The position numbers and the translations under genes were made by a program. Of a stretch of DNA of 64,000 nt, positions 24,976 to 61,269 are shown in pieces. Source of the stretch: an uncultured Nitrososphaerota archaeon (lineage in GTDB: Archaea; Thermoproteota; EX4484-205; JAAOZP01); the NCBI GenBank assembly GCA_964635675.1, contig CAZWPT010000003.1, positions 3,672 to 67,671 on the forward strand, in the 5' to 3' direction. The notes below the pieces were generated by a model. The model was not told the DNA's origin, made no database searches, and saw only the letters and a program-made list of their open reading frames with translations. Positions within the stretch are counted from its first letter, which is position 1; each line of letters begins with the position of its first letter.

Positions 24976-24985
24976 GAGATTCGAA

Positions 24986-25288: not shown

Positions 25289-25677
25289 ACGAGCTTGTCA
25301 GGAAGATCAATCTTCTTGAAGAAGAGCTTAGGAAAGAAAGGGAGTTGAACAGGGATATATTGCGAGAGTTGGCTGTCGTTAGAAGCATCCTCTCCTTAAG
25401 TTCAGATGCCTATAAGACTTCTAAGAAAATAAGCCTCCTCTCAGAAAGCCTAAGAGCAGGACCATTAGCTAGAGATATAACTGAAATATTGATAGCTGAG
25501 GGGCCATTAAACATATCTCAGCTGACTAATCTACTGAGAGAAATTAGAGGAAGGGCCTCTCGGAAAACGGTTGCAAAGAAGCTTAGAGAATTAATGGAGC
25601 TAGGGATTGTAGATGCGATAGAAGGAAAAAAGAGTGAAAAGCTCTTTAAAGTACGAAGCGAAGATTCAAGCAAGTAG
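25273..25677 (+). CDS. Putative winged-HTH transcriptional regulator
   Basis: 134 aa. An N-terminal coiled-coil is followed by an HTH-like segment (ITEILIAEGPLNISQLTNLL...LMELGIVDAIEG). Confidence 0.4.
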   Translation: MESRIDELVRKINLLEEELRKERELNRDILRELAVVRSILSLSSDAYKTSKKISLLSESLRAGPLARDITEILIAEGPLNISQLTNLLREIRGRASRKTVAKKLRELMELGIVDAIEGKKSEKLFKVRSEDSSK

Positions 25678-25881
25678 CTGCGACAGTTTTTTGTAAAAAG
25701 CTTCATCCTCTCTAAAGGAGCTAACTCCTCGTATCTGGCGGGTTTCCCACACCTTTGTAAGAATAATGATACCCTGCTGCAACATCAGAGCATTCAACTT
25801 ACAACTGAGAAGTTATATCATTTCTGGACTCTACTCTAACGCTGATGCTCATAACTATGGTTTTGAAAGACTATTCAATGT

Positions 25882-35163: not shown

Positions 35164-35571
35164 ATGCATGAATGGGCTTTAGCCGAATCGGTGATAAAAA
35201 CAGTTCTAAGAATAGTTGATGAAAAAGGGATTAGAAAAGTCACCGAGATTAAAATAAAAATCGGGGAAATGCAGCAATTGGAATATGAAGTGTTCAGAGA
35301 AGCACTGGTGCAGTTGAAACCTGTTGAGTTGAAGGACGCTGAGTTCATTATAGAGGTTGCGGAGACAGAGTTTAAATGCAGAGCCTGTGGGTTCAAATGG
35401 CTTTTTCCAAAGAAGGACCTTGGCGAAGACGTGCTGGAAGCCATACACTTTCTCCCGGAGGTTTCTCACGCCTACTTAAAGTGTCCTCGGTGCGGAAGCC
35501 CGGATTTTGAAATAACCGGGGGCAGAGGGGTTTGGATCGAGAGTATAAGCGGAGTGGAGAAGAATGGTTGA
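35164..35571 (+). CDS. hypA: HypA-like metallochaperone (hydrogenase Ni-insertion factor family)
   Basis: 135 aa. N-terminal MHEWALAES (the MHE Ni site) and two CxxC pairs (CRACG, CPRCG) forming the Zn site. Confidence 0.7.
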   Translation: MHEWALAESVIKTVLRIVDEKGIRKVTEIKIKIGEMQQLEYEVFREALVQLKPVELKDAEFIIEVAETEFKCRACGFKWLFPKKDLGEDVLEAIHFLPEVSHAYLKCPRCGSPDFEITGGRGVWIESISGVEKNG

Positions 35572-36289
35572 TCCGAGAATAAGCGTGATTGACGATAGGA
35601 TGAGGAAAGTAGGAAGGATAATTGCTGTTTCAAGCGGTAAGGGGGGCGTGGGTAAGAGCCTACTGGCTTCTACGCTCGCGTTGATCTTGGCAGGAAAAGG
35701 CTATAGGACCGGGTTGTTCGACTTGGATTTTACAAGTCCTTCTACGCATGTCATTCTGGGTTTTAAAGAAGCTCGGCCTGTGGAGGACAGGGGGATTATT
35801 CCACCACTTGCCCATGGCTTAAAATACATGACGATAATCTACTATTCGGGTGAGCGTGCAACGCCGCTGAGAGGCATGGATTTTTCAAACGCGTTTATCG
35901 AGCTGCTTTCTGTTACTAATTGGGGTGAATTGGATTTCCTAATACTGGATATGCCTCCGGGTATTGGCGATGCTACTCTCGACGTCATACGTTTAATGAG
36001 AAAATCTGAATTTCTAATAGTTACAACCCCGTCTCCACTAGCTTTTGAAACAGTTGAGAAGCTAGTAGGAATGCTGAGGGAGCTCGATGTTCCTATAGTG
36101 GGTGTAGTCGAAAACATGAAAACAGGGTTGAGCAATATTCAGCAGGAATCTCGAAAACTCAATGTCAGGTTCCTAGGAGAAATACCGTACGACCCGGCGG
36201 TTGAGGAGAATCTTGGGAACGTAGATGGATTGTTGAAGACAGTTTTCGCAAAAGAGGCTGAGAAGCTGCTCGAGCATCTAACAGGGTAG
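35564..36289 (+). CDS. Mrp/MinD-family P-loop ATPase, ATPase-type HypB-like partner of HypA
   Basis: 241 aa. Deviant Walker A SSGKGGVGKS. The 8-nt overlap with the hypA-like gene suggests translational coupling. Thermococcales-type HypB belongs to this ATPase family. Confidence 0.65.
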   Translation: MVDPRISVIDDRMRKVGRIIAVSSGKGGVGKSLLASTLALILAGKGYRTGLFDLDFTSPSTHVILGFKEARPVEDRGIIPPLAHGLKYMTIIYYSGERATPLRGMDFSNAFIELLSVTNWGELDFLILDMPPGIGDATLDVIRLMRKSEFLIVTTPSPLAFETVEKLVGMLRELDVPIVGVVENMKTGLSNIQQESRKLNVRFLGEIPYDPAVEENLGNVDGLLKTVFAKEAEKLLEHLTG

Positions 36290-36333
36290 TGGTGAAAAAC
36301 GCATCACCCTGTTTCCTCAGGACGCCGGATATA

Positions 36334-37800
36334 CTAATCTTTGTTGCATATGCAGTGACCCTTATATCCATGGCAAACAGGACAAGTAGCCACGTTTTGC
36401 CCACTAGGATACCATCCGGCTTCTCCAGGCCCCAAGATTACGAAGCTTGCTATCCTATTTTCAAACTCTATATTAAGCTCATTTACGTTTTCGACTTCAG
36501 GCGCTTCGACAAGGAAGCGCTTCTGACCGAACAGGCCCTTTAATTCAGTCACTTCCCACCTAGGGGGAGTTCTCAGCCCTATTTCCGGTTCCACCTGTAA
36601 ATTGTTCTTAAAGACTCTTATACCTAGGGTTTTTCCTACATGCGGGTAGATGACTGGCTCCCCATTGTAGTGCAGCCACACTTCACAGTCGTCAATGCTT
36701 CTTACAGAGGAATGGACATCGTTTTTCAAGGAGCCTATTGCCAGCTCGTTTCTCATAAGGAGCGATACATGGTTCTCAGGCAGAATTGTGCAGTCTCCGA
36801 GTTTTACTTCCCGGTTTTTCTCCAGAACCTTTTCCGCTACAGCCACCACTCTATCCGTCAATTCAGACACTGTCTTAGGAGCATTATCCAGCCTGGTATA
36901 CTTGTGAAGGATAATCTTCTCGCCAACCCCCTTTCTCCAATCATCCGGAATACCCTTGGTTCCGAGGATTATTCCAAGCAGAGAGCCCAGAGTTGCCCCA
37001 GTGCAATCAGTATCATAACCACAGTTCACAGCCTTACACAGCTTGTCGCCGAAATCCTTCCCGTAGAGCAGGCCAAGTACCGTGAACCCGTGGTTCTGCA
37101 CAGCGTGGCACGCACTGTTATGCCCATACCAGTAGACTATTCTCTCCCTGGCTTCAGCCCACCTGACGTTATTCCTATAGCACCATAAGGCTTCTCTTAT
37201 AACTCTCGATATCTGGGAATATACTGGGATCATGTTTAAACCTATCCTTATTAGTGCCTCAGCATCGCTTACCAGGAAGGCTGCGCTCTCTACAGCAGCC
37301 CAAAACATCTCCCCGTACATGCCTTCGCCCCCAGAATGATCCAGGCAGGAGTCTTTCCAAGCGTAGGAGGCTGCGAGCTGCGGGTTACCGGGGGCGATGC
37401 AGGCCCATATTTCACTCCTTATTGGCGATCCCATCTCGTCCACGTAGTAGTTTTCGAAGCATCCTGAAACAGGAGGAAGGAGGCCTCTTCTGAGGTTCCT
37501 CTGGCAGAACCCATACTCGTTCCAGGGGTATGCTGAGAGGTGCTTAAGCCAATATTCTGCAAGTGTTTCAAGCTTGACCTCTATCCCATGGTCTTCAAGC
37601 ATCTTCAGCCAGACTAGTTGAAAATCAAGATCATCATTCGGAGCGGCTTCGCCAACCGGTTGAGCGTAGAACTCCAGGTTATTCACAAACTTCTTTCCTT
37701 CGAAGGGCGCGCCCAAAGTGCCTCCGATGTTCTTTCCAAGCCAGCAAGCGTTGACCTTGTCCCAGTATTCTGACCTTGAAAGTATTATAGGCTTATCCAT
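36334..37800 (-). CDS. ADP-ribosylglycohydrolase (ARH) family protein with a C-terminal beta-rich extension and Cys/His-rich tail
   Basis: 488 aa. N-terminal IGGTLGAPFEG and later GYDTDCTGATLGSLLG match ARH family motifs. The C-terminal extension of about 150 aa ends in CPVCHGYKGHCICNKD. Confidence 0.65.
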   Translation of the reverse strand: MDKPIILSRSEYWDKVNACWLGKNIGGTLGAPFEGKKFVNNLEFYAQPVGEAAPNDDLDFQLVWLKMLEDHGIEVKLETLAEYWLKHLSAYPWNEYGFCQRNLRRGLLPPVSGCFENYYVDEMGSPIRSEIWACIAPGNPQLAASYAWKDSCLDHSGGEGMYGEMFWAAVESAAFLVSDAEALIRIGLNMIPVYSQISRVIREALWCYRNNVRWAEARERIVYWYGHNSACHAVQNHGFTVLGLLYGKDFGDKLCKAVNCGYDTDCTGATLGSLLGIILGTKGIPDDWRKGVGEKIILHKYTRLDNAPKTVSELTDRVVAVAEKVLEKNREVKLGDCTILPENHVSLLMRNELAIGSLKNDVHSSVRSIDDCEVWLHYNGEPVIYPHVGKTLGIRVFKNNLQVEPEIGLRTPPRWEVTELKGLFGQKRFLVEAPEVENVNELNIEFENRIASFVILGPGEAGWYPSGQNVATCPVCHGYKGHCICNKD

Positions 37801-37866
37801 TTATTTCCAATTTAGCCCGCAGGATCTGATTTTTAAAGTTTTAAACATTAATGGTCCTCTGGCTGA

Positions 37867-38973
37867 TCATTTTTTCGCAGCAAGTTCATCAAGCAGTTGT
37901 GAAACCATTCTTACCCTCTCGATATCTGCAGGAGGGGGAAGCTCATCCGATATGCCAAGTATGAGCCGTGGAATAGCCTTCACTATTTTTCTTACCAGTT
38001 GCTCCAAAGTTTCGAAAGGCACGTTCGGAAGGAAAAGTAGGAAGGGTATGCCGTCTAAGACGACGATCTCATCCTTAAACTCTCCTGCAATATCTTCGAC
38101 TGTCATGTCTCCAACGGGCTCAGGGGTTAAGGCTTCAACCCCATCAACCCCAGACCTCCAGAGTAATGGGAGAAGAGGCTTCGCATAGCCGTCAACATGT
38201 ATATGCACGTACTTGCCTCTTTTATGCAAGTATTCGCACCTCTTCTGATAGATCGGCAGACAGAATTTCTCGAACAGCCTTGGAGAAGTTAACCTAACAT
38301 CAATGTTTTCCCCCAAGTTAAATATTTCAATCGGAGAATTGCCCATCAGCTCAAAGAACTTATCATTATATCTTTCAATAGCATCCATAATCTCCTCAAG
38401 CCTATTATACCCTTCAATGTATAGGAACCTCATTGTCCGAGTGAAACCCATGTAGTCCAGTATTAGAGCCTGAAGAGGCGAGTGTGGAAAGAAGAAGGAA
38501 ACTATTCCTTGCTCCTTTACGTTCCTCTCCAACTCCTCGTAAACCCCCTGGTTGAACCTGACTTCAGCACTGTCCAGCAGGTAGGATAAAGCCTTAAAAT
38601 CCTCAGCGGTTTTCAAAAGATACTCTAGTTTTCTCGAGGACAGGCCCCATTCGTCAGTCTTAGCTACTTCCTGAAGCGAGCCGACGGGCGTTTTAATCCT
38701 TGTCCTAACCATGTTTCCGTTTCTCGTAACATTAAACTGAACGTCATCCCCGTATGATACTTCCACAGCGCTTTTCACGAAGTATCCCGAGTAACACCTC
38801 CAGCTTGCTCCAAGATCTATGCAAACATCTGCGAGACTAACTCCCTCGTATTTTTTAGGAAGCTTTCCACTCTTCTTCGCCACGTAATACCAGTATTCAT
38901 GCCTTATATTCCAAGGGACCTTGTCTACCTGTCTTCCCTGGAAGACCGCTAGGATTCTTTCATGAGCGTTCAA
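37867..38973 (-). CDS. URO-D/MtaA-superfamily protein, paralog 4
   Basis: 368 aa. N-terminal MNAHERILAVFQGRQVDKVPW aligns with paralogs 1 and 3. The central motif is VHIHVDGYAKP. The called start codon is TTG (caa on + strand at 38971-38973). Confidence 0.6.
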   Translation of the reverse strand: MNAHERILAVFQGRQVDKVPWNIRHEYWYYVAKKSGKLPKKYEGVSLADVCIDLGASWRCYSGYFVKSAVEVSYGDDVQFNVTRNGNMVRTRIKTPVGSLQEVAKTDEWGLSSRKLEYLLKTAEDFKALSYLLDSAEVRFNQGVYEELERNVKEQGIVSFFFPHSPLQALILDYMGFTRTMRFLYIEGYNRLEEIMDAIERYNDKFFELMGNSPIEIFNLGENIDVRLTSPRLFEKFCLPIYQKRCEYLHKRGKYVHIHVDGYAKPLLPLLWRSGVDGVEALTPEPVGDMTVEDIAGEFKDEIVVLDGIPFLLFLPNVPFETLEQLVRKIVKAIPRLILGISDELPPPADIERVRMVSQLLDELAAKK

Positions 38974-39017
38974 AGCAGCATGTTTTTGCTAAAGGGCATT
39001 ATAAATTTAGCGCTAGC

Positions 39018-42000
39018 CTATTTCCTTAGTCTGATCGTTTTTATTTCCCACGGTCCAAGTTTGACTTTGAGCGAGCCTTCTTGAAGCTTAAGCCTCGACA
39101 GGTTTCTTTCAAGCAAATCGGTCTCAACAGCCTCTCTAACGGGAAAACCTGGAGTGATTTCTGCTTCGCTGCCTTCCCCAGTCGCGTCGTAAATTCTGAT
39201 TATGATGCCGTCCGAATCCTCAGCCGTCTTTAGGCAGGACAATACTATGTTTTCAGGATTTATTCTCATGAACGACGCTTCCTCTGGAAGATTTCCCTGG
39301 GAGGCTCTAACAGTCACAACAACTGTTTCGAGTGGATGGTTCAGTTCGTATCCTCTTCTGAAGGTAAGCGCCTTCCTCCAATCCTCTCTGTGAGGATACA
39401 AAGAATACTTAAGCTCGTGACGGCCCTGATCCGGATTTGGGTCTGGACTATAACTCGTCCTGAGAATCGTCATTCTCATTGTATTACCCTGCACATCAAA
39501 CCCGTACTTGCAGTCGTTCAGCAAGCTGACACCATACTCGCCGTCTGAGAGGTCAACCCATCTTAAAGCAGGAAACTCTCTTCCATCAGCAATTCTTGAA
39601 ATGCTTCCAAAAGGTATTTCAAAGGTTGCGGTTGAGGTTCCTAAGATTGGTGTGAAAGAGACTTTCAACATGGGGGCGTCAGTGAACTCGTCAGACACTT
39701 CATGCCAATCAACAGTTGTGTGAAAATCAATCCTAGGGATCCCTGCGTAAAGCATTATTTCTTGGGTTATGGTTGAATCCCTATATCTCCTTGTAGTATG
39801 GATCCTCGACACCACTGGGCCTTTCTCAACCGCTTTTACCTCAGCCCCAGTAAGCAGGTTCTCCACCTTAGTTATAGGCCCTATTATCCAGGCAGACATT
39901 CCATGAGGAGCCTCGTGAAACACTTGAAACAGGTTGCTGAACTCTGGCCGTGTAGCCTCATGTCTAAAAGCCTTAGTCACAAACCTGCCTTCCTTCTTAT
40001 CGTAAACCGACTCTATTGCTCCAGAATCCTGATCTACCTCAATCTTGAAAAACTCGTTTTCAAGCACTGTCTGCTTTGGTTCAGGTTGATAAGACTCCTC
40101 TTCCCCTCCTTCTACTAGATAGTAGGTTGAGTAGCCTAGACTTGGTACTTCAGCGATGAAAACCAGCTCATCGCCATTAATCTGAACAGGGTGTTTCTTT
40201 CCACGCACATCCCTAACAACCGGGTTTTCAGGAATTATCTCCCTAGGTATTTTAACTCTTACAACATCCTTTCTATCCCAGGCAAGAGTATTGAATACTA
40301 TTATTGCCAACCCTTCTTGAGAGAATTTTATCCTTTCAGCTGTCTTCTTCATGGATTTATCTAAGATTTCCTTTGCTGTTGCAAGAACCTCCTCAGCTAG
40401 ACGGTTAGAGTATGAGTAGGCGTCGTGAAACGCACTTCCATCCAGAATGTCGTGGAACTGGTTGAACAGTGTTTTCTTCCATGCTTCTTCAAGTTTTTCT
40501 CCAGGATATTCGCTAGCGATTGCTGAAAGCTTTTCAGCATCAACTAAATATCTTTCACACAACCTGTTGTAACGCTTAATGTCAGCATGAGTCGTGTAGC
40601 AACCGTCGAAAGTAAAGTTGAGCTCATCCCTAACTACTGGTAACTCTAGTTTCTCCTTCGAAACCTCGTCGAAAAACCGGTGCGTCGAACTGAAGACTAC
40701 GTCAGGAAGAACTGGCTTCTCCCGTATTTTGATCGCAGCCTTAATGTCCTCAATAGTTGCACCACCACCATGATCCCCAACCCCGTAAACGAACATGCTT
40801 GTTTTCAATCCGTATTTCTCATGCAAGAGTTTCGCGGTTTCAACTATGTTTTTAGGAGTGATCATGTTATTGTAAACACTGTTGAAGGCAAGCAGTCTTG
40901 AGCCATCTGGTCCCTCCCAACAAAACATTGGATATCCTTTTCCACATCTTGTGAAATAATAGTATTCCACTCTGGCTTTCTTTAAAACCTGCGGGAGTGT
41001 CCAAATGTGGCCGAAAGTATCAGGCTCCCATCCTACCTTTATTTCGAAGCCGAATTTCTCCTCCACGTATCTTTTTGAATACATTATTTGTCTAACCAGC
41101 GTCTCTTCCCCTATCATGTTGAGATCTGCCTCAACCCACATGGAAGCTGTAACATCCCAGTTTCCAGAGCGGATTTTCTCCCTTATTTTCTCGAAAAGAC
41201 CAGGGTTCTTCTCCTCCACTACTCTGTATGTTACTGCCTGGCTTTGAGAGAAGTGGAAATCCGGATAGCGATCCATTAGATCCACCATTGTTGAGAAGTC
41301 TCTCTCTATGACTTTCACAGTGTCTTCCCAAGGCCAGAGCCAATTCATATCTATGTGAGCATGCGCTACAAGGTGAACTTTAAACTCTTTAGCATACTTA
41401 GACAGAACCTTTAGCTTCTGTCTCGCCTCCTCTATTTCTATCAGAACGCTTTCGGCATTACGCGAAAAAACACCGAAGTCAAATTCTCCAACAACCCTGT
41501 TCAATGTTTCAGGCCCACCAGGCAGGATTTGGGCAAAACCCAACTCTTGAATGAAAGACTCTATTTCGAACGCGACGTTGTCGACAACATCATATGCTAG
41601 TTGAAACAAGGGTATTCCTTTTTTCTCCCCCCTTGAAAATGGTCTTTTTTCATACGCGTGTATAGCCACCACATGAATGTCGCCAGGTCTCGCTTTCTCC
41701 GCAATAGTTATTCTCGGTCCTCGAAAATCAGTCCAATAATCCTCCTTCAAGACAAGCCTGGAATCAACATAGACCTCGCCGCCGGTTATCATTGCTGAAG
41801 AATACATTTCAACCTTCGAGCCTGAAACCTTAAGCCCTTCTATCTCATCAGGAATCCTGATTTTACATCTCAGCCATACATCGCCTTTAGAAGGATCCCA
41901 TTGAAAAGGCAGTGAAACAGTCTCCCATGAGGAATCGTCAAAATCCCTCATGTAGGCTTCTTTCAAATCCCCTTGGAAAAACCTCCAGGATAATTTAGAT

Positions 42001-42080
42001 CGGTAGTCGGTTAGCATCCGATAGACGTTTTCCAGGTTTGCTTTAAGCTCCTCAAACTCGCCGACATCGGGTTCAGCCAT
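39018..42080 (-). CDS. GH38-family alpha-mannosidase
   Basis: 1020 aa. HAHIDMNWLW motif (the GH38 H-x-H-x-D metal/nucleophile region), plus GH38 central and C-terminal domains. Confidence 0.85.
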   Translation of the reverse strand: MAEPDVGEFEELKANLENVYRMLTDYRSKLSWRFFQGDLKEAYMRDFDDSSWETVSLPFQWDPSKGDVWLRCKIRIPDEIEGLKVSGSKVEMYSSAMITGGEVYVDSRLVLKEDYWTDFRGPRITIAEKARPGDIHVVAIHAYEKRPFSRGEKKGIPLFQLAYDVVDNVAFEIESFIQELGFAQILPGGPETLNRVVGEFDFGVFSRNAESVLIEIEEARQKLKVLSKYAKEFKVHLVAHAHIDMNWLWPWEDTVKVIERDFSTMVDLMDRYPDFHFSQSQAVTYRVVEEKNPGLFEKIREKIRSGNWDVTASMWVEADLNMIGEETLVRQIMYSKRYVEEKFGFEIKVGWEPDTFGHIWTLPQVLKKARVEYYYFTRCGKGYPMFCWEGPDGSRLLAFNSVYNNMITPKNIVETAKLLHEKYGLKTSMFVYGVGDHGGGATIEDIKAAIKIREKPVLPDVVFSSTHRFFDEVSKEKLELPVVRDELNFTFDGCYTTHADIKRYNRLCERYLVDAEKLSAIASEYPGEKLEEAWKKTLFNQFHDILDGSAFHDAYSYSNRLAEEVLATAKEILDKSMKKTAERIKFSQEGLAIIVFNTLAWDRKDVVRVKIPREIIPENPVVRDVRGKKHPVQINGDELVFIAEVPSLGYSTYYLVEGGEEESYQPEPKQTVLENEFFKIEVDQDSGAIESVYDKKEGRFVTKAFRHEATRPEFSNLFQVFHEAPHGMSAWIIGPITKVENLLTGAEVKAVEKGPVVSRIHTTRRYRDSTITQEIMLYAGIPRIDFHTTVDWHEVSDEFTDAPMLKVSFTPILGTSTATFEIPFGSISRIADGREFPALRWVDLSDGEYGVSLLNDCKYGFDVQGNTMRMTILRTSYSPDPNPDQGRHELKYSLYPHREDWRKALTFRRGYELNHPLETVVVTVRASQGNLPEEASFMRINPENIVLSCLKTAEDSDGIIIRIYDATGEGSEAEITPGFPVREAVETDLLERNLSRLKLQEGSLKVKLGPWEIKTIRLRK

Positions 42081-42149
42081 TACTCTACAAAAATAAATTA
42101 CATATATAAAGTTTGAGGCAAAATGGCTATTGATTAGATACGCTGCATG

Positions 42150-43235
42150 TTAAGTCTTAATCGGGTATCTGCCGTATTTTTCTGCAGCCATGTACATTGC
42201 TAAGGCGTTCTCAGGCGGCACATACCTGGTTAACACATTAGTAGTGCTTAAAATGTAGCCTCCTCCTGGAGCCACTTCCAGCATGAGGCGTTTCACTTCA
42301 GCTTCCACGTCTTCCGGTTTACCAAACGGCAGTAGATAGTCTAAGTCAACGTTTCCCATCAAACACAGCATGCCCCCCCAACTCTTCTTGATATCAACGA
42401 TGTTAACGCCCGCACTTGGTTGAAGACTATGTAAACCGTCAAACCCAGCCTTAGCTATATCCTCCATTAATAACGTGATATTACCGTCTGAATGCAGCAT
42501 AACTGGGAGATTGCGCTTGTGTGCAGCCTCAGCCTCACCAGCCAAGTAGGGGAGCACGCATTTCCTGAGAAGGCTTGGAGGGATGAAGGGGCCGTTATCA
42601 TACGCTAGATCATCACCAACCAGTATCACGTGCGCCCCGGCCTCGGCAAACATCTTTATGACTTCTAGGTTAAACCTGTAGACTTCTTCGATCACATGTC
42701 TCAGAGCATTCGGATAGAGGTAGAGGGCTTTAACGTAATTTGTAAAGCCCATATGGGGGTAAATCGAGTCGAATACGCCGCCTACTTGAGCGAAAACGCA
42801 AAAATCAGTCTGCTCAACCCACTTCCTTATGCTTGAAGTGTTGAAGAGGCTTATGTCAGGCATGTAGAATTGCTCCATGTCTCCAGGAGTGTGAGGAGCA
42901 TATTTCAAGTAGCGCCGCGTTTTTCCACTTTCAACCCATTCTGCTCCAAGCCAGTTTCGATATATTGGATATCCCTCCTTCGTTGTCCCTATGGTTTCAA
43001 CTTTAGGCCCACCACCTAATCCGAGGTTTACCAGATCCATATTGAGCAATTTTCGAACCCTTACATGAGCCTCAAAAGAATCATCAATGGGCTCCCTTAG
43101 AAGAGCTGAGACAAGTTCATCATGTATTCCTAACTCTCCCTTAGGTACCTTATCAGCCTCTTCAATGTTCAAAGCTCGATAGACTCTTTCAACCTTATCC
43201 AATGATACCACCTGCGGCAACGTGGAACCGTACAA
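42150..43235 (-). CDS. URO-D/MtaA-superfamily protein, paralog 5
   Basis: 361 aa. ...PVMLHSDGNITLL...CLMGNVDLDYL...GGGYILSTTNV. The called start is TTG at 43233-43235 and the N-terminus aligns with the other paralogs. First gene of an apparent minus-strand operon with GH38, paralog 4 and ARH. Confidence 0.55.
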   Translation of the reverse strand: MYGSTLPQVVSLDKVERVYRALNIEEADKVPKGELGIHDELVSALLREPIDDSFEAHVRVRKLLNMDLVNLGLGGGPKVETIGTTKEGYPIYRNWLGAEWVESGKTRRYLKYAPHTPGDMEQFYMPDISLFNTSSIRKWVEQTDFCVFAQVGGVFDSIYPHMGFTNYVKALYLYPNALRHVIEEVYRFNLEVIKMFAEAGAHVILVGDDLAYDNGPFIPPSLLRKCVLPYLAGEAEAAHKRNLPVMLHSDGNITLLMEDIAKAGFDGLHSLQPSAGVNIVDIKKSWGGMLCLMGNVDLDYLLPFGKPEDVEAEVKRLMLEVAPGGGYILSTTNVLTRYVPPENALAMYMAAEKYGRYPIKT

Positions 43236-43382
43236 CTGATTGCATCAAGCCTATTAACCCTTTGATAGCCATATCCATCACGTTCAGAACCTCCGAAGCT
43301 TCTTTTAGTTGTTTTTCCAGCCATATGTCCATGCTTAGAAATGGTTCGTGCTATTTATTAATTTAATGACGGCGGAAAGATA

Positions 43383-43850
43383 GTGCTATCCATGCGTGCG
43401 CTCGCCTTCATTATAGGCCGGATTCTTAAAACTTTAATAATGGCCTCTGAATATTTTCTCGTAATGCCGCGTATTGATGAAGTGAGGCTTTTGAGGAAGA
43501 GGGCAAAATCCTTTTTCGTAAGAGCCCTAGAGAGCTTAAATTCAGGGGATTATGACTTAGCCGCCTTCTTATCTGAGCAGTCGGTACAGCTTTATCTTAA
43601 ATCGATATTACTGGAAAAAATAGGTGATTATCCCAGAGTACACTCGATCCTAACTCTTGCCTTTATCCTTAAGAAACTACCTGATTGCAAAGACCTTGCA
43701 GAATTTCTCGACAAAAAGAAAGCCGAGGTTCGCTTGCTGGAAGACGCGTATATAGCTTCAAGATACTTATTAAGGGAGTATGTTAAAGAAGAAGCTGAAA
43801 TGCTCGTAAACGTTGCAAGCGAGGTTTTAAAGTATGGAGAACTATGTTGA
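43383..43850 (+). CDS. HEPN-domain protein (toxin-antitoxin partner of MNT)
   Basis: 155 aa, helical. Gene order and 17-nt overlap with the downstream MNT gene are typical of archaeal HEPN-MNT pairs. Confidence 0.55.
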   Translation: MLSMRALAFIIGRILKTLIMASEYFLVMPRIDEVRLLRKRAKSFFVRALESLNSGDYDLAAFLSEQSVQLYLKSILLEKIGDYPRVHSILTLAFILKKLPDCKDLAEFLDKKKAEVRLLEDAYIASRYLLREYVKEEAEMLVNVASEVLKYGELC

Positions 43851-44175
43851 CATTCTCATAAAGAGGGCCGAAATGGTTAGAAACTGGAGAGAGTATATAA
43901 ATAGTATAGTGGAAACTGTGAAGTCTGTTCTACCAGATTCGAAAATTTATGTTTTTGGAAGTGTAGTGAAAGGCGAATCCACCGGTGGGAGTGATGTAGA
44001 TATACTGGTGGTTTCAGAAAGAATCCCAAGGAACAATCTAGAAAGGGCAGGATTAAAGATAAGAATAGAGGAGCTTTCAAACCTTCCGCCATATCATCCG
44101 TTTGAATTTCATTTGGCGGATAGAGAAGAAGGAGAATGGTACTTTAAGAGAATTAAAGAGCTAATAGAATATTAA
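43834..44175 (+). CDS. Minimal nucleotidyltransferase (MNT) of a HEPN-MNT pair
   Basis: 113 aa. GSVVKGESTGGSDVDILVV equals the GSxxxGxxxxxSDxD nucleotidyltransferase motif. Confidence 0.8.
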   Translation: MENYVDILIKRAEMVRNWREYINSIVETVKSVLPDSKIYVFGSVVKGESTGGSDVDILVVSERIPRNNLERAGLKIRIEELSNLPPYHPFEFHLADREEGEWYFKRIKELIEY

Positions 44176-45032: not shown

Positions 45033-46151
45033 TCATACATGGTCTAAAGAAGGCATGTGTACTGGTAAGGGAAGCAGCACGCTAAGTTCCCTTAGTTTCC
45101 CGATGCTTACCGCAGCACCGCCGAGGAAGATGCGTACGGCTTCACGCTCATCAAGCTCTACGTAGTTTCTTGAAAAACTGCCTTTTTCAATGTCAACCTT
45201 ACCGTTGTTTACATAAATTGTGGCCGTATCGACATCAACGCCAAGCTTCAATCCGATGGAGAGTTCAAAGTCCCTCACCATCTCTGCTCTGCCGGACATA
45301 AACTCTTTAAAAGCTTCGAGCAGGCCAGTTATGTCGATTATCCTGAACAGTCCTTCAGGAACTATTTCCCAGTATGAGGCTGCTTTAAGCAGGTGTTCAA
45401 GCCTTTCAGTGTCAAACGCGTTGACCTCTATGGAGGCGGAGTCTCCGAAGCAGCGTTCCATAACGCCTCCAACTAATTCTGCCTCTTTTCCCTCTAGCGA
45501 TGCAACTTCAAGTATCCTTGGCGGGCCGATTTCGCCGGAAGAAATAGCATATCCTTCTTTTCCAATCCATATTCTTATCCCTTCCTTCTTCAAAATCAAA
45601 GCATGATGCCTACGTTCAACCCTCATCTTGAGGGAACTGTGAAGTTTCTCCACTTTGAGAGCGGCATCCTCGGGGAAAACCTCCTCTACTTTAACAGGCT
45701 TCACATGCGCCCTTTCAAGAGAACGAGCCGTTATGTTTATCGAGTATTTTAAGCCAGCAATATCCCATCCAAAAGGATAGTATCTTTGCCTGTCCCCCCA
45801 GAGGACTGACAGCGGCAAACCCTTCTGCTTCATCAGATTGCCCACATGCTTCAGAAGCATCGACATATAGCCTTTCTTCCTTTCTTCCGGCAGGGTTGCG
45901 ACGCCGCCTATTCCACCAATCTTTATACGGGTCCCTAAGCTAAATAGCTCGAGGGGAAACAGTCCTACGTGTGAAACTATTCTCCCGTTTTCCTCCAGAA
46001 CTATGAATGATGAAAGAGCCTCTTTCTCTTGCCTGTAGAGCTGCGGATAGTAACGGGGAAAATAGTTTCTAGAATGCCCGTAGCTTCTTTCAAGAAATCG
46101 CATGAAATCATCCCACTCCTCCGGTTTTAAGCTTCTTATAGCAGGAGTCAT
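45033..46151 (-). CDS. GNAT-family N-acetyltransferase, Eis-like (with C-terminal SCP2-like domain)
   Basis: 372 aa. N-terminal acetyltransferase core (VGLFPLEL...IGGVATLPEERKKGYMSMLL) with a downstream domain arranged as in Eis-type enzymes. Confidence 0.6.
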   Translation of the reverse strand: MTPAIRSLKPEEWDDFMRFLERSYGHSRNYFPRYYPQLYRQEKEALSSFIVLEENGRIVSHVGLFPLELFSLGTRIKIGGIGGVATLPEERKKGYMSMLLKHVGNLMKQKGLPLSVLWGDRQRYYPFGWDIAGLKYSINITARSLERAHVKPVKVEEVFPEDAALKVEKLHSSLKMRVERRHHALILKKEGIRIWIGKEGYAISSGEIGPPRILEVASLEGKEAELVGGVMERCFGDSASIEVNAFDTERLEHLLKAASYWEIVPEGLFRIIDITGLLEAFKEFMSGRAEMVRDFELSIGLKLGVDVDTATIYVNNGKVDIEKGSFSRNYVELDEREAVRIFLGGAAVSIGKLRELSVLLPLPVHMPSLDHV

Positions 46152-47714: not shown

Positions 47715-49679
47715 TCACATAGAGGCTTCTTGCGGAAGCAATTCGTCCACAGCCTCGTATAGACTCTGCCTGATTTGGCTGGACCTTTTTAAACTGAAAA
47801 GAGCCTCATTAAGCAGGCGCATCGCGAAGACGGAGGCGATCCAGCTGTTTGTCCAGCCTGACTCAACGCTCCAAGCCCCCCATCCTGTGTCTGAAGAACT
47901 CCCCCAGTACTCCCATTTCTCATAGTCGAAACCCCGCATCCAGCAGCCATCCAGATACGGTTGCTCCTCTGAGCGAAGCTGTATCCTGCATAGGAACCCT
48001 GCCAGCTTGTCCTCCGCCTGTTTTAAACTGGCACTTCCGTAAGCGGAAGCCAGCTCGTGCAGACCGAGGAAGGCGAAGTTTAAGGTGTAAAGCAGGTCGC
48101 ACGCGGGGTCTCCGTTCTCCTGGATTACCGGAGCCTCGGTCGTACCGTATTGTTCGTTCGAGCTGGGAGGCGGGTATTGGCCGTTTCCCACCGGCCCCAA
48201 CGTTTCCCTGATGGCGCCGCACGCCTGCTGCTGAGAAACCAGGTCTCCAACAATTCTGTCAACCCACATCCTGTATTCAGCCCTGTCTTCAACCCGGATG
48301 AGAAAGGCGAGTGGCAAGGCCATCCTTGCCAGTTCCTGCGTAAGCCCGTTTGTCCACTTCCAATCCGGGTATTTCTCAATAGTCATGCGAACCGCGTTAA
48401 CGGTTCTCTCCAGAAACCTCGGGTATCCTGCTAATAGAAAACCCCATAGGAAACAGGCCCACAGGTAAGCCTGGTAGTGAGGCGAATAAGAAACAATAGG
48501 GGTTTTCCAATAGTATTCCCACCCGTTTCTAAGTAGATCTGGAAGGTCTATCCTGTTCTTCCTAAACCCGAGGGGACCCGTAGTCCGGAGATTAGCGATC
48601 AGGCAGAGGGCCAGAGCCTTGTCCCACCGGTCATCCTCCAGATTGCTGCTTGCGGAAAGCGTTGAAAGAATGACCCTCGCATTATCATCCCCGTAGAAGA
48701 CTGGGAGGCCATCCATCCAGTTAACCAGCCCGTACGCAGGACTGTTCTTATCGGTTTGCTGGAAGGACCATACGTAGTCGAGGATGCTGGTGGCGATTAG
48801 CCTGCTCCTCGGGTTGCCTGTAAGCCTCCAATCGTACGCAAAAACCATCGCCGCCTCAGCCAAGCAGTCTGAACGTATCACCACCCTCTTGAGTTGATGC
48901 CCCTCGTAATCTATATTTGACTGATAGCCTTCAATAACACCTCTGTTTCTCTCAACGCCGAAAAGAACGTGTTTACGAAACCATTCTACAGACCTCCGGT
49001 AAGCCTCCTGTTCCGCATTATCAGGCAGGGGCTCGCTATTCTCGAACATGGTTCTAACGGTCGGAACCCAAGATAAGTCGTAGGCTTCCCCCGTTAACCA
49101 TTTCAACAACTTCCTCCATACCTGTCTCCAAGCATTGCTAGGAGCATACCTTCCTGTTCTAAACTGGCTCAGCTTACTCGTGGAGACCATGGTTCTATCA
49201 GAATACTCGAACAGAATAGGGTGGAACTCTCCGGGCAGGCCGAAAACCGCTTTATCATACCCTGCAACCCTTGCCAACACCATGTGAGAAACACCCTCCT
49301 TTTTATAGAGAGGCAGAAACCAGCAGTCATGCATGTTCAGTATAGTCATACGGGGAAGCTCGGGCTCGAAGAAACTTGAAGTGACGACCACTCTCTCCCA
49401 CTCTACTGTCCGTGGCTCTTCGAATACAATGTTCGGAAGACCTGATGGATATTCTAAGTAGAGCCTTAAATTTTTCTCCACGGCCTTATTTAAAATGACC
49501 GGCCCGATTGTCAGTTTCGGAACAGGATAAGAGTCCGCTAAGGCAAGCACACCGTCTCCATGGGAAGCATTGTTAACAGCCTCTTCTAACAGCTCATAAC
49601 GCATTAAGGTCCTCCCAGATTCCGCTAGAACCTTGTACAAGTCGTTTTCAGGAGAGCAGCACAGTATCAGCCTTCCCAT
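47715..49679 (-). CDS. Hypothetical 654-aa protein, possibly an (alpha/alpha)6-type glycoside-hydrolase-like enzyme (unverified)
   Basis: Long soluble ORF, rich in Trp/Tyr in its C-terminal half. Divergent from the LmbE-like gene and adjacent to GH38. No diagnostic motif recognised. Confidence 0.45.
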   Translation of the reverse strand: MGRLILCCSPENDLYKVLAESGRTLMRYELLEEAVNNASHGDGVLALADSYPVPKLTIGPVILNKAVEKNLRLYLEYPSGLPNIVFEEPRTVEWERVVVTSSFFEPELPRMTILNMHDCWFLPLYKKEGVSHMVLARVAGYDKAVFGLPGEFHPILFEYSDRTMVSTSKLSQFRTGRYAPSNAWRQVWRKLLKWLTGEAYDLSWVPTVRTMFENSEPLPDNAEQEAYRRSVEWFRKHVLFGVERNRGVIEGYQSNIDYEGHQLKRVVIRSDCLAEAAMVFAYDWRLTGNPRSRLIATSILDYVWSFQQTDKNSPAYGLVNWMDGLPVFYGDDNARVILSTLSASSNLEDDRWDKALALCLIANLRTTGPLGFRKNRIDLPDLLRNGWEYYWKTPIVSYSPHYQAYLWACFLWGFLLAGYPRFLERTVNAVRMTIEKYPDWKWTNGLTQELARMALPLAFLIRVEDRAEYRMWVDRIVGDLVSQQQACGAIRETLGPVGNGQYPPPSSNEQYGTTEAPVIQENGDPACDLLYTLNFAFLGLHELASAYGSASLKQAEDKLAGFLCRIQLRSEEQPYLDGCWMRGFDYEKWEYWGSSSDTGWGAWSVESGWTNSWIASVFAMRLLNEALFSLKRSSQIRQSLYEAVDELLPQEASM

Positions 49680-49763: not shown

Positions 49764-50522
49764 ATGGCACATGTGAAAACGAGCAGGGTGTGGAGGAACG
49801 GTGACAGGATTCTAGTTATTCAGGCTCATCCTGATGATGCTGAGTATTATGTTGGCGGAACAATAGCGAGAATGACTGGAGACGGATGCGTCGTGAATTA
49901 TGCCACTGTAACCGACGGTAGCAAGGGGACCTTCGACGTGAACATGGACCCTGCTGCTCTAAGCGAGATTAGAAAGAGAGAGCAGAGGGCTGCGGCAGAT
50001 GTGCTTGGGGTGAAGGAGCTCTTTTTCCTAGGTTATCCCGATGGCGACCTATATCCCTCTCTCGAACTGAGAGGGAAGCTTGTAGAATTGATAAGAAAAG
50101 TGAAGCCTAATATTGTTATGACGCTTGACGCTTGGCTGCCTTACGAAATACATCCTGACCACAGGGTTACTGGACTAATGGCATCTGAGGCAACGGTTTT
50201 CGCGGGCATGCCTAACTTTTACAGAGAGCAGACTCTTTCAGGAATTCCGCCTCACAAGCCCGACATAATACTTCTGTTTGCTACAGGCAACCCGAATCTC
50301 TTCGTCGACATCACCAAGCTTATAGAGAAGAAGGCTGAAGCCATTATGAAGCATGAGAGCCAACTACCCCTAGCCTTCCGAGAAGGCTTTGGAAAGGGGA
50401 ACTTGGAAGAAGTAAGAAAGGAACTGGTAAAAAGCCTCAGGAAAAGAAGTAGAAAAGAAGGAAGATACGTGGAACCCCTTAGAATGTTTAAAGTGGGAGC
50501 AGGCCATTTTGTAAGAGAGTGA
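49764..50522 (+). CDS. PIG-L/LmbE-family N-acetylglucosaminyl deacetylase
   Basis: 252 aa. ILVIQAHPDDAE zinc-binding motif, plus the HPDH motif region (EIHPDHR). Confidence 0.8.
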   Translation: MAHVKTSRVWRNGDRILVIQAHPDDAEYYVGGTIARMTGDGCVVNYATVTDGSKGTFDVNMDPAALSEIRKREQRAAADVLGVKELFFLGYPDGDLYPSLELRGKLVELIRKVKPNIVMTLDAWLPYEIHPDHRVTGLMASEATVFAGMPNFYREQTLSGIPPHKPDIILLFATGNPNLFVDITKLIEKKAEAIMKHESQLPLAFREGFGKGNLEEVRKELVKSLRKRSRKEGRYVEPLRMFKVGAGHFVRE

Positions 50523-50600
50523 ATGCTTAAAGCTTTAATCATGCGAATCTGTGTAGACGCTTTCAAAAGATTTATATAAATCCTGAAACGGAAAAGCTTC

Positions 50601-53531
50601 ATGCGGACGATTCAGGAGCTTGAAGCAAGACTAGCCCTTTTGTACGCCGCTTCCTTCAAAAACATCAGGATCCTTGACTGGGATTCCTTCACCGGCAATA
50701 AGGCGACGATAACCTTGGACGCTGCCGGAGAGAATTTTCAACTCGCAGTGTTGGATTACAAGGGTTCTGCACTTGTGAAGCTGGATTCAAAACCATATTT
50801 CGCCCTAGACGGCTACCATTATGCCATACCGATTCCACAGGGTCATCACGTGGTGGAGGCGGAGTTCTCGCCTTTCCTTGCATTCGGCGAGAAGGTGGAT
50901 GTTCACCCGGGTAAGCCTGTAGGCGTCAACAGAAACATGGAGGCGTTGAAGCTCTGGGCGTATGGAAGGTCGATTTTGGAACTAGCACGTGCAACTAAGG
51001 ATGAGGAGCTAAAATCTGTTCTCCTAAGGGCTTTAAGCAACTCCCTTAAGGAAGCTCCTTTCGAAACCGTTTCTAAAGAGCAGGTTCTCCTGGCCACTTC
51101 TTTCAAGGCTATGATAGGAGGGCTAGATAGTGTTCCAAGACTATTATCTGAGGATATTGCATCGCTATACGTTGAGGAGCAGGGCATAGAGAAATACGGG
51201 AGAGCGCTAAACCTGCTTAGGAGCATACTTAGTAATCTTGTTGGAAAATACGGGAAGAGGGGGGAAATGGTTGCGCTTGCCCATGCGCACATTGACACTG
51301 CTTGGCTCTGGCCCTTCGAAGAGACTAGGAAGAAGGTTTACAGAACATTCTCCACGGTGTTGACTCTAATGGAGCATTACGATTTTAAGTATATTCAGAG
51401 CGCTGCTATATATTACAATTGGATCAAGAAGGAGGAGCCTTCGATCTTTGAAATGGTCAGGGAGAAAATCAAGGAGGGGAAATGGATACTGGGAGCAGGC
51501 TGGGTGGAGTTCGACACTCAAATGATATCCGGCGAGTCGTTGGCTAGACAACTCTTATACTCTCAAAGGTTCTACATGGAGAACTTCGGGAGGACTGCTG
51601 AAGTACTTTGGCTCCCGGATACCTTCGGATTCTCGCCAACCCTCCCCCAGGCAGCGAAACTCGCCGGGGTCAAGGTTTTTGCAACCCATAAGGTTTTCTG
51701 GAATGATACGAACACTTTTCCATATAACGTGTTTCTCTGGGTCTGTCCAGACAACGCTAGGCTTGCGGCTGTAGCCTTTGGCCATGGCAGGGGAGGCTAT
51801 AACTCTGATTTCACTGCAGACAGTGTTTACGAGCAGTGGCAGAACTGGGTTGACAAGGATCGCCCCATGCTTTACTCCTACGGCTATGGAGACGGTGGGG
51901 GAGGACCTACTGAAGAAATGCTTCTGAGAGCTGAAGCAGTAGACTCGCTTCCAATCCTGCCGAGAGTGGATCTGAAAGGATCATTTGAATCAGTCGTCAA
52001 GCCTCCTGTTTATGAAGAATGGAGGGGAGAACTCTATCTTGAGGACCACAGGGGTGTTTTCACGTCGCATTCAAGGATGAAGCTGTTAAACAGGAGGGCG
52101 GAGCTAGCTTTAAGGGAGGCGGAAACATGGGCGACTTTCGCCGGAACGTATGATGGAGAAAGGTTTTCAAGCCTTTGGAAAATCCTTCTTAAAAACCAGT
52201 TTCACGATGTTCTGCCAGGCTCCTCCATAAGGGAGGTTTACAGCGAGGCTTACCCGGAGCTTGAGAAGGTGATTTCCGAGGCAGAGGAGATTGCTGAGGA
52301 AGCCATGAGGAAAATAGCTGGGAAAGGCCGTACGACGCTGGTTTTCAACTCATTACCCTGGGAGAGGGAGGACTATGTGGTGCTCAACAGACAGGTTGAT
52401 GGTTCCCAGAGGGTTCCCGAGGGCTTCTTAATAAGGGTGAGGACACTCTCAGCAGGGTATGCTCCGCTTAACAAGGCTCAAACGACCCAGGTGAAAATCC
52501 TTGAGGAGGATGATTCCTACATTGTTGAGAACAGGTTTTTCAAAGCCAGGATTGCTAAAAACGGGAGGCTGCTTTCAGTATTCGACAAGGAGGCGGGTAG
52601 GGAAGTCTTGAAGAGTCCGGGGAACAGGCTTGTTGCCTACGAGAACATCCCGGGGTGGGCTGACGCGTGGAATATAGAGAAGGGCTATAGGGAGACCTCT
52701 TTCGAAATATCTTCCTCGAAAAGCATGGTTGTCTGCAAAGGCCCGTTGATGGCTTCCGTCTGCTTCACCTACCCGTTCAGAAGATCCGAGATAAAGCAGG
52801 AAATCAGGGTCTACTCCGACTCTAGAAGAATAGACTTCAAAACAACTGTAAACATGAAGGATAGGGAGTTGCTGGTTAAAGCATGGTTTGATCTAGATTT
52901 GAACGCTGAGAAAGCCGTTTCAGACACCCCCTTCGGCGTTATTGAAAGGCCCACTACTGGAAACACTTCCTGGGAGAAAGCCAAGTATGAGGTGGCGATT
53001 CAGAAAATGATAGACCTCTCTGAGCACAATTATGGCGTTGCATTGCTGAACGACGGGAAATATGGAGTTTCAGTAGAGGGTTCTTCAATAGGTCTTTCAA
53101 TAACGAGGACCCCCGTCTTCCCAGACCCTTCTACCGACTTGGAGGAGACGGCCTTCACCTACTCTATCTACCCCCACGTAGGAGACTGGAAGGAGGCGGG
53201 AGTATTAAGGAGGGCTTACGAGCTTAATGTTCCGTTGAGAGCGTTAGAGGGGAAGAAGGGGAGTAAAAGCTTCTTGAAAATAGACTCCGGCAACCTGATG
53301 CTTGAGGCTGTTAAAAAGTCCGAGGATGGGGATGATGTTGTTCTAAGGCTTTACGAATTCTGGAATGCACGGGGCAAGGCACGCGTCAAACTTTCTTTTA
53401 ACGTTAAGAGCGTGGAATCAGTAGACATTCTTGAATCAAACAGTGTTGAGAGAGACATTAGCATAAGCAGGACTGCTTTAGACTTTACGTATCGCAATAG
53501 GGAAATAATCACTTTAAAAATACGCAGGTAG
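50601..53531 (+). CDS. GH38-family alpha-mannosidase (second copy)
   Basis: 976 aa. LAHAHIDTAWLWPF motif. Moderately diverged from the 39018..42080 copy. Confidence 0.85.
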   Translation: MRTIQELEARLALLYAASFKNIRILDWDSFTGNKATITLDAAGENFQLAVLDYKGSALVKLDSKPYFALDGYHYAIPIPQGHHVVEAEFSPFLAFGEKVDVHPGKPVGVNRNMEALKLWAYGRSILELARATKDEELKSVLLRALSNSLKEAPFETVSKEQVLLATSFKAMIGGLDSVPRLLSEDIASLYVEEQGIEKYGRALNLLRSILSNLVGKYGKRGEMVALAHAHIDTAWLWPFEETRKKVYRTFSTVLTLMEHYDFKYIQSAAIYYNWIKKEEPSIFEMVREKIKEGKWILGAGWVEFDTQMISGESLARQLLYSQRFYMENFGRTAEVLWLPDTFGFSPTLPQAAKLAGVKVFATHKVFWNDTNTFPYNVFLWVCPDNARLAAVAFGHGRGGYNSDFTADSVYEQWQNWVDKDRPMLYSYGYGDGGGGPTEEMLLRAEAVDSLPILPRVDLKGSFESVVKPPVYEEWRGELYLEDHRGVFTSHSRMKLLNRRAELALREAETWATFAGTYDGERFSSLWKILLKNQFHDVLPGSSIREVYSEAYPELEKVISEAEEIAEEAMRKIAGKGRTTLVFNSLPWEREDYVVLNRQVDGSQRVPEGFLIRVRTLSAGYAPLNKAQTTQVKILEEDDSYIVENRFFKARIAKNGRLLSVFDKEAGREVLKSPGNRLVAYENIPGWADAWNIEKGYRETSFEISSSKSMVVCKGPLMASVCFTYPFRRSEIKQEIRVYSDSRRIDFKTTVNMKDRELLVKAWFDLDLNAEKAVSDTPFGVIERPTTGNTSWEKAKYEVAIQKMIDLSEHNYGVALLNDGKYGVSVEGSSIGLSITRTPVFPDPSTDLEETAFTYSIYPHVGDWKEAGVLRRAYELNVPLRALEGKKGSKSFLKIDSGNLMLEAVKKSEDGDDVVLRLYEFWNARGKARVKLSFNVKSVESVDILESNSVERDISISRTALDFTYRNREIITLKIRR

Positions 53532-53535
53532 TTGA

Positions 53536-55958: not shown

Positions 55959-55990
55959 CGTGCAGTAAGCGTTGGAGACAATATTTAAAC

Positions 55991-58768: not shown

Positions 58769-58811
58769 GAGGCTTTCAATCTGTTTTGCCCGGGCACGCG
58801 TGAAAATCGGT

Positions 58812-61229: not shown

Positions 61230-61269
61230 CCGGGATGGCTCAGCCTTAACGCCTAACGCTTTTTCCGTC

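Follow-up and report, generated by a model that had tools for sequence, protein, structure and literature searches.

Four neighbouring genes on one strand of an archaeal contig, encoding two uroporphyrinogen decarboxylase (URO-D)-like proteins, a GH38 alpha-mannosidase and a relative of the ADP-ribosylglycohydrolases (ARH), raise the question of whether they form a single operon whose products act in turn on one mannoside. The genes lie in a 64,000-nt stretch (hereafter the window) of contig CAZWPT010000003.1 (positions 3,672 to 67,671, assembly GCA_964635675.1) from an uncultured Nitrososphaerota archaeon, in the order URO-D5, GH38, URO-D4 and ARH-like gene. All four open reading frames (ORFs) were recovered on the minus strand at the coordinates given in an initial annotation, with spacers of 69 nt (URO-D5/GH38), 44 nt (GH38/URO-D4) and 66 nt (URO-D4/ARH), and Pfam matches were obtained for its four domain calls (URO-D, GH38, URO-D and ARH). 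All four gene products are cytoplasmic. The closest named homologs, with ARH-like proteins 82–89% identical, belong to metagenome-assembled genomes (MAGs) of Brockarchaeota and Thermoproteota. With moderate confidence, we interpret the locus as a lineage-specific gene cluster of a Brockarchaeota-like archaeon, in a sugar-catabolism island of the mannoside/N-glycan type, and not as one tight operon with a shared substrate; our confidence in any particular substrate is low.

The strongest indications on the operon question come from the spacers. In archaea the TATA box of a promoter lies approximately 26 nt upstream of where transcription begins, and leaderless mRNAs are common. Strong TTTAWAWA matches in the window were located 28–32 nt ahead of the start codons of many stand-alone genes (e.g., those at 2320, 22980, 31485, 47715, 50601, and 54816), and no such TATA box was found before the overlapping or tightly coupled genes at 15899, 35564, and 53536. 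This pattern suggests that the transcripts of this organism are mostly leaderless, and TATA spacing would be a simple rule for separating transcription units. In the manner of the stand-alone genes, each internal gene of the cluster is preceded by a TATA-like box, at −30 (GH38), −32 (URO-D4), and −37 (ARH), and none of the three has a Shine-Dalgarno (SD) sequence. The promoter-like block of GH38, CTCAAACTTTATA(T/A)AT (approximately 17 nt), hardly varies among five genomes, whereas its flanks diverge. Similarly, A(T/C)TTATA lies 26–29 nt before the URO-D4 TTG in five genomes with GH38/URO-D4 spacers from 44 to ~125 nt, and AAAC(C)TTTAAA lies at a fixed distance from the ARH start in five genomes with URO-D4/ARH spacers from 66 to ~200 nt. 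By contrast, URO-D5 has an SD and no TATA-like box within 70 nt. The URO-D5/GH38 spacer contains a T5 run (coding-strand background, 0.057 T5+ runs per 60 nt), and a hairpin with T5 following the ARH gene was the only minus-strand terminator-like site in 36200–43450. A scan for sigma-70 promoters and intrinsic terminators returned fewer matches than shuffled sequence; it is not applicable to archaeal promoters, and the post-ARH hairpin was its one useful result.

These features indicate that the locus is probably a cluster with individual internal promoters and not the simple operon originally proposed, for which independent promoters between the genes had been named in advance as contrary evidence. 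Transcription may also read through from GH38 as far as the terminator that follows ARH. In a true four-gene operon, one polycistronic mRNA would start at a promoter upstream of URO-D5 and its products would act sequentially on one decorated mannoside. The genes are indeed co-directional with 44–69-nt spacers, in an order conserved in the closest relatives, but those spacers widen to ~125 and ~200 nt in the related locus L018. The sole hairpin with T5 follows ARH and the SD of URO-D5 implies a leadered mRNA; however, a T5 run separates URO-D5 from GH38, and each internal gene has its conserved box at the distance of a leaderless promoter and no SD. Moreover, where ARH identity drops to 75% the gene stands outside the cluster, and L015 has neighbouring URO-D5 and URO-D4 genes with no GH38. 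We consider a four-gene operon unlikely.

The gene order in other genomes was then compared. The order URO-D/GH38/URO-D/ARH was kept only in close relatives (loci L001 and L002 [ARH 82% identical in both], L012 [89%], L018, L019, and L098). In L013 and L014, whose ARH proteins are 75% identical, the gene is located apart, flanked by an MFS/DeoC/AFOR block and an AP_endonuc_2 gene. In 77 ARH-family loci other than those of the close relatives, GH38 was found within 6 kb of ARH once, and URO-D-like genes approximately 12 times. The placement of an ARH-fold enzyme in a mannosidase operon had been taken as a functional hint; with the adjacency confined to close relatives, this hint is weakened, and ARH–GH38 coupling as a general rule was rejected on the count of one in 77.

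URO-D4 showed a different neighbourhood. Among 79 URO-D4 metagenome loci, another URO-D gene was nearby in 22, GH38 in four, and ARH in none. A census of 108 URO-D4 neighbours yielded URO-D (18), SBP_bac_1/8 sugar ABC binding proteins (8), ROK (5), and GH38 (3); no glycosidase family other than GH38 ranked in the top 25. Thirteen of the 18 URO-D neighbours that had a BLAST match were URO-D5-like. In Bathyarchaeia (L015), the URO-D4 ortholog adjoins a 65%-identical URO-D5 ortholog. In a bacterial locus (L017, 4810–13070), the order is an AraC gene, GH38, the URO-D4 ortholog after 9 nt, a URO-D5-like gene, Zn-ADH, GFO/IDH/MocA, a further URO-D gene, and a 701-aa unknown. From these two loci and the two counts, we infer that the conserved core is a URO-D4 plus URO-D5-type pair in sugar-uptake loci, with GH38 as a recurrent companion and ARH as a lineage-specific addition. 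The tightly packed, AraC-regulated run in L017 is a cleaner candidate operon than the window cluster for studying the function of the URO-D pair.

The window is rich in sugar-related genes, and the four genes are a real sugar-related cluster. It encodes two GH38 proteins, a GH2, a giant GH2-like/FtsX protein, a GH36-like protein, PIG-L and PfkB, together with a fucose-isomerase-like protein, two AP_endonuc_2 proteins, DUF6807, DUF4432, GFO/IDH/MocA and an MFS transporter. It further encodes a TrmB regulator, HypA and a HEPN/NT pair, as would suit an archaeal host. The window thus looks like a sugar-catabolism island of the mannoside/N-glycan type. Six URO-D-like genes were counted and not five; the sixth is located at 58812–60326.

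The GH38 protein matched all four GH38 Pfam domains (N-terminal, 4.1e-62; middle, 3.6e-22; C-terminal, 2.3e-47; C2, 3.5e-19), and its best solved relatives were the Ams1 entries 7vqo and 6lz1 (E ~1e-86). It contains the metal-binding motif HxHxD of GH38 enzymes as HAHID (residue 240) and their Asp-containing motif PD(T/P)FGH as EPDTFGH (residue 352). No signal peptide was found, and the score against mannosylglycerate hydrolase MngB (NF007331) was 136.5 bits, below the cut-off of 1138. As judged from its sequence, the protein is a cytosolic alpha-mannosidase of the Ams1/MAN2C1 class with intact catalytic motifs.

The two URO-D-like proteins matched PF01208 only over their C-terminal 55–60%, URO-D5 with an E value of 1.3e-28 and URO-D4 weakly (2.8e-8). 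The N-termini of the window paralogs align, as had been noted, in a common motif M-x-x-x-E-R-(V/I)...D(K/R)VP. Both genes had been assigned TTG starts. That of URO-D4 stood, being conserved in all five relatives, whereas that of URO-D5 shifts from 43235, which is only the start of the longest ORF, to 43202. The start of URO-D5 is most likely at 43202 because translation from there gives MDKVERV, in agreement with the paralog motif, because AGGTGG lies upstream, and because the ortholog gene calls in L002 and L012 are 350 aa long; the arrangement AGGTGG-N5/6-TTG is kept in L012 and L001. A small upstream ORF before URO-D5 (GTG/ATG at ~43270) was discarded, as it is not conserved in L012. URO-D4 had 869 homologs, with 50–57% identity in Bathyarchaeia and ~40% in bacteria, which define it as a divergent member of the URO-D superfamily with its own subfamily. 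The invariant residues of this subfamily include H257-x-H259-x-D261, N223, D225, E280, D307, and S342-D343-E344. No solved structure related to URO-D4 by sequence was found.

Both proteins fell short of the thresholds for HemE, MtaA and MtbA. Against HemE (TIGR01464), URO-D5 scored 19.8 with a cut-off of 302.95 and URO-D4 gave no match; the MtaA and MtbA equivalog scores (48.7 vs 400 and 32.7 vs 600) were far under their cut-offs. When aligned to MtaA 4ay7, URO-D5 shows H-S-D-G and URO-D4 shows H-V-D-G where MtaA has the zinc motif H-x-C-G, and Thr/Asn occupy the position of the distal zinc Cys. URO-D4 and URO-D5 are mutually distant TIM-barrel proteins of the URO-D superfamily that lack the MtaA-type Cys zinc ligands. 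These results bear on a reading in which the URO-D-like proteins are corrinoid-dependent O-demethylases that strip methyl ethers from methylated mannose or other sugars before the glycosidases act, a form of the initially suggested removal of a non-sugar substituent. Corrinoid methyltransferases that demethylate O-, S- and halide compounds belong to the superfamily (PMC10418091), and URO-D5 matches both MtaA 4ay7 and CdmB 9rui; however, besides the replaced ligands and the low NCBIfam scores, no corrinoid-binding or Ram/RACE protein was detected among the scanned ORFs of the 64-kb window, and the 25 most frequent neighbour families of the URO-D4 subfamily include no corrinoid protein, B12-binding domain or Ram/RACE protein. 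Brockarchaeota have been reported to encode MtaB/MtaC and MttB systems without MtaA (De Anda et al., PMC8065059), a gap that such proteins might seem to fill. Overall, we regard corrinoid-dependent O-demethylation as very improbable.

The ARH-like protein matched ADP_ribosyl_GH (PF03747) over residues 18–286 (4.2e-41, 141.9 bits, cut-off 26.2). Its reported motifs were all read in the sequence: GGTLGAPFEG at residues 26–35, DTDCTGA at residues 263–269, and the tail CPVCHGYKGHCICNKD. An AlphaFold model of the full-length protein (pLDDT 89, pTM 0.92) comprised a helical ARH core, linker helices and a beta-sandwich at residues ~360–456. Foldseek related the core to ARH3, Tri1, MJ1187, and DraG with a probability of 1.0, target-normalised TM scores of 0.6–0.7 and 14–20% identity. 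E34, N55-D56-D57, and D263-T264-D265-C266-T267 are invariant in a 38-sequence family alignment. When aligned with solved ARHs (MJ1187, Lmo0067, 2cwc, and DraG), E34 corresponds to the Glu of GDALGxPxE, NDD to the TDD of MJ1187, and DTDC to GGDTD(T/S). On this alignment the acidic metal ligands are kept and the two hydroxyl ligands become Asn and Cys, so that N55 and C266 would replace the usual Thr/Ser ligands of (T/S)DD and DTD(T/S). Loss of the conserved metal-binding Asp/Thr residues had been named as a finding that would speak against the original interpretation: the Glu/Asp part of the site is invariant in all 38 members, and the Thr/Ser part is, on the alignment, replaced.

The extra C-terminal region described at the outset is real and consists of linker helices, the beta-sandwich and the tail, although what is conserved in the tail is a Cys4 motif. 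Each of its cysteines is at least 90% conserved (alignment A7), whereas its histidines are not. The Asgard members P0091, P0108, and P0113 lack the Cys4 motif, which makes the knuckle dispensable; P0030 ends upstream of it. The Ig-like domain modelled alone had a pLDDT of 84, and its fold search returned only weak, generic Ig, filamin and SbsC matches (E ≥ 2e-3). With the C-terminal domain as query, phmmer retrieved from 1.84 billion representatives only fragments and full-length members of the protein's own family; since the domain is confined to this family, there is no other architecture from which a function could be borrowed. More than 4,571 matches share the same full-length architecture, with 55–60% identity across Armatimonadota, Planctomycetota, Brocadiia, Asgard archaea and Bathyarchaeia, and a relative is encoded in at least 594 species-level genomes of bacteria and archaea. 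Such identity between domains of life, over so many genomes, argues that the function of the clade is strongly constrained. No literature on this clade was found, nor any joining an ADP-ribosylglycohydrolase with a rhamnosidase or a uroporphyrinogen decarboxylase; for URO-D with a mannosidase, the papers retrieved were all irrelevant. In L013, a second, shorter ARH-family paralog (438 aa, 19717–21033) lies ~8 kb from the ARH ortholog, and the Brockarchaeota MAG loci L069 and L090 carry ARH-family genes with 44–51% identity, indicating several ARH paralogs in these archaea.

The conserved fold and acidic metal ligands could also be expected of a genuine ADP-ribosyl hydrolase acting on protein or small-molecule ADP-ribosylation, O-acetyl-ADP-ribose or NAD-derived ribosides, with the adjacency to GH38 and URO-D4 incidental. 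The protein scored far under the thresholds for DraG (TIGR02662; 27.2 vs 337.05) and Tri1 (NF041672; 21.2 vs 490), has 14–20% identity to characterised ARHs, and has two metal ligands replaced. A Pfam census of 123 immediate ARH neighbours gave URO-D (7), GFO/IDH/MocA (4), AraC-type (4), GH78 rhamnosidase (3), and LacI (3), with neither ADP-ribosyltransferases nor macrodomains in the top 25 families. Sugar genes and AraC/LacI regulators thus dominate, but the ARH-like gene usually stands alone and its neighbours differ widely: some loci have phosphoribosyltransferase, ROK and metallophosphoesterase genes, others DeoC-type aldolases and AFOR. Ribose-utilisation loci of Bacteroidetes also contain ARH genes (bioRxiv 10.1101/574913). 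On balance, ADP-ribosyl hydrolysis appears a doubtful assignment for this protein.

Under the interpretation that we favour, a lineage-specific cluster in a sugar island, GH38, URO-D4, and ARH would each be transcribed from their own promoter with a B recognition element (BRE) and TATA box as leaderless or nearly leaderless mRNAs, and URO-D5 would be SD-led. GH38 would act in the cytoplasm on oligosaccharides, imported or recycled, and trim off their alpha-mannosides. The URO-D pair may convert a sugar or sugar derivative in a metal-dependent reaction that needs no corrinoid. The ARH-like protein, through its two-metal site, may hydrolyse a small cytoplasmic metabolite at a glycosidic bond, namely at the anomeric carbon of a ribosyl-type or similar cis-diol sugar. 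A bolder and quite unlikely extension is that the 490-aa clade is a new family of metal-dependent glycoside hydrolases acting on cis-diol glycosides (ribosyl-, mannosyl- or rhamnosyl-type) and not on ADP-ribose, working with paired corrinoid-independent URO-D-like enzymes in an undescribed cytoplasmic sugar route common to Planctomycetota, Armatimonadota, Asgard and TACK archaea.

Several observations weigh against the favoured interpretation. We infer the substrates of all the proteins except GH38. The spacers have 29–39% GC, a composition in which TATA-like strings arise easily, and the inner spacers (GH38/URO-D4 and URO-D4/ARH) contain no run of four or more T, so that one long transcript is possible. 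The placement of N55 and C266 at the metal site comes from sequence alignment and not from model coordinates. GH38 lies near URO-D4 in just four of the 79 metagenome loci. URO-D genes were among 5/111 adjacent and 5/286 more distant ORFs around ARH (Fisher p = 0.11, own HMMs), and the URO-D neighbours of ARH elsewhere have 22–34% identity to the window paralogs; given this p value and these identities, the ARH–URO-D link is only suggestive. URO-D was accordingly dropped as a significantly enriched ARH neighbour, despite being the top family by count (7/123). The coordinates of the cluster and its elements are given in Table 1.

Table 1 Features of the four-gene cluster, in window coordinates.
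Feature	Position	Strand	Description	Basis
URO-D5 ORF, as listed	42150-43235	minus	361 aa, TTG	Longest ORF
URO-D5, corrected	42150..43202	minus	350 aa from probable TTG 43202	Paralog motif and conserved SD/TTG
SD-like AGGTGG	43208..43213	minus	5 nt upstream of URO-D5 TTG	Read in sequence; conserved in L012 and L001
BRE/TATA-like element CTCAAAC-TTTATATA	42103..42117	minus	TATA starts 30 nt upstream of GH38 ATG	Perfect TTTAWAWA match
T5 run	42089..42093	minus	URO-D5/GH38 spacer; possible oligo-T terminator for URO-D5 transcripts	
GH38	39018-42080	minus	1020 aa, ATG	
TATA-like TTTATAAT	38998..39005	minus	Starts 32 nt upstream of URO-D4 TTG	
URO-D4	37867-38973	minus	368 aa, TTG	
TATA-like TTTAAAAA	37830..37837	minus	Starts 37 nt upstream of ARH ATG	
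ARH-like gene	36334-37800	minus	488 aa, ATG	
ARH-like catalytic all-helical core	36811..37800	minus	Residues 1 to ~330	PF03747, AlphaFold, Foldseek
ARH-like Ig-like beta-sandwich	36433..36723	minus	Residues ~360-456; family-specific	Models
ARH-like Cys4 knuckle	36346..36384	minus	C473-P-x-C476-x6-C483-x-C485	Alignment conservation
Hairpin and T5	36295..36324	minus	Just past ARH stop, T5 35 nt after stop; likely transcription-unit end	

Other parts of the window also attracted attention. A second sugar block (49764–63998) comprises a PIG-L deacetylase (49764–50522), the second GH38 (50601–53531, 976 aa), GH2 (55991–58768), the sixth URO-D-like gene (504 aa with an N-terminal extension), AP_endonuc_2 (60399–61229), GFO/IDH/MocA (61270–62424), a creatininase-like gene and an MFS transporter. 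A 1810-aa ORF (8093–13525, minus strand) joins GH2-like N-terminal sugar-binding domains to MacB periplasmic-core and FtsX permease domains and is an unusual fusion of a glycosidase-like module and an ABC-type permease module. Convergent with the ARH gene is a HypA and Mrp/NUBPL-type P-loop ATPase pair (35164–36289, plus strand), which L001 and L012 have at the corresponding site and which in L016 neighbours genes for PfkB and KDPG aldolase. It is curious to meet a metallochaperone pair repeatedly among sugar genes, several of whose products are probably metalloenzymes. A HEPN and MNT-type nucleotidyltransferase pair (43383–44175, plus strand) is located between the cluster and a GNAT gene (45033–46151). 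As L012 has the GNAT gene directly upstream of URO-D5 without the pair, a mobile toxin–antitoxin-like insertion is suggested; a similar pair occurs upstream of the ARH gene in the Asgard locus L008.

Several ORFs gave no Pfam match. Three small co-directional ones (123, 100, and 134 aa; 24604–25677, plus strand) lie in an ORF-poor stretch, in which no repeats were found (24100–25900), and comparable unannotated small genes adjoin AP_endonuc_2 in L001 and L012. Larger ones (778, 654, 427, and 380 aa) are located at 13575–15911 (plus strand), 47715–49679 (minus strand), and 53536–55958 (minus strand); L001 and L012 have a Pfam-less gene of 650–652 aa that is equivalent in position. No tRNA genes or Rfam families were found across the window.

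For the locus itself the result is modest: an ordinary sugar-catabolic cluster with probable individual promoters and no dedicated four-step operon. Two of its protein families are nevertheless large, conserved and without assigned function. Of the four genes, three fall into very large conserved groups that databases name after known relatives ("ADP-ribosylglycohydrolase family" and "uroporphyrinogen decarboxylase family"), and these groups did not pass the tests for those functions. Working out either activity would correct widespread annotation and perhaps add a step in anaerobic glycan catabolism. In Brockarchaeota, URO-D-superfamily genes could wrongly pass for the missing MtaA, for which the window paralogs should not be mistaken.

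Among known systems, the closest counterpart of GH38 is Ams1/MAN2C1 (6lz1, 7vqo, and 5jm0), with which it shares the four-domain architecture, a length of ~1,000 aa, the lack of a signal peptide and the motifs HxHxD and (E/I)PD(T/P)FGH. It differs in its archaeal host and flanking URO-D-like genes; the MngB type is excluded by score. The URO-D-like proteins share with HemE, MtaA, MtbA, CmuA, and CdmB the PF01208 TIM barrel, the N-terminal E-R-x...D(K/R)VP helix and the conserved His of H-x-(C/D)-G. However, they have no Cys zinc ligands and no nearby corrinoid protein, score far below the thresholds, occur as six paralogs in one sugar island and, in URO-D4, carry the signature H-x-H-x-D and S-D-E. 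Type 1 mlp clusters, proposed for S/Se-methyl metabolism, likewise group several URO-D-superfamily paralogs outside methanogens, and are defined by zinc-site MtaA-like proteins (Mlps) together with a corrinoid protein and a reductive activase (Ram/RACE) (PMC10418091). Here, by contrast, the corrinoid protein, activase and zinc-site Mlps are all missing, and the accompanying genes encode glycosidases, sugar ABC binding proteins and ROK proteins.

The ARH-like protein has in common with the ARH/DraG superfamily (human and Latimeria ARH3, DraG, Tri1, MJ1187, and T. thermophilus 2cwc) an all-helical fold, the N-terminal G-x-x-x-G-x-P-x-E helix with its conserved Glu, and the DD and D-T-D two-metal motifs. 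It departs from that superfamily in its low identity (14–20%), in the Asn55 and Cys266 that are invariant in its clade, and in its neighbours, which are sugar genes and not nitrogenase or toxin genes; none of the solved ARHs has its extra region of ~160 aa (linker helices, Ig-like sandwich and Cys4 knuckle). Uncharacterised ADP-ribosylglycohydrolase genes are also contained in the ribose-utilisation (rus) polysaccharide utilisation loci (PULs) of Bacteroidetes (bioRxiv 10.1101/574913). The rus PULs belong to another phylum and locus type, with no SusC/D in the window, and the likeness is drawn at the level of the ARH family and not of the 490-aa clade. At that level, both settings place an ARH-family gene among glycosidases and sugar kinases, here with the PfkB kinase gene 2.7 kb from the ARH gene.

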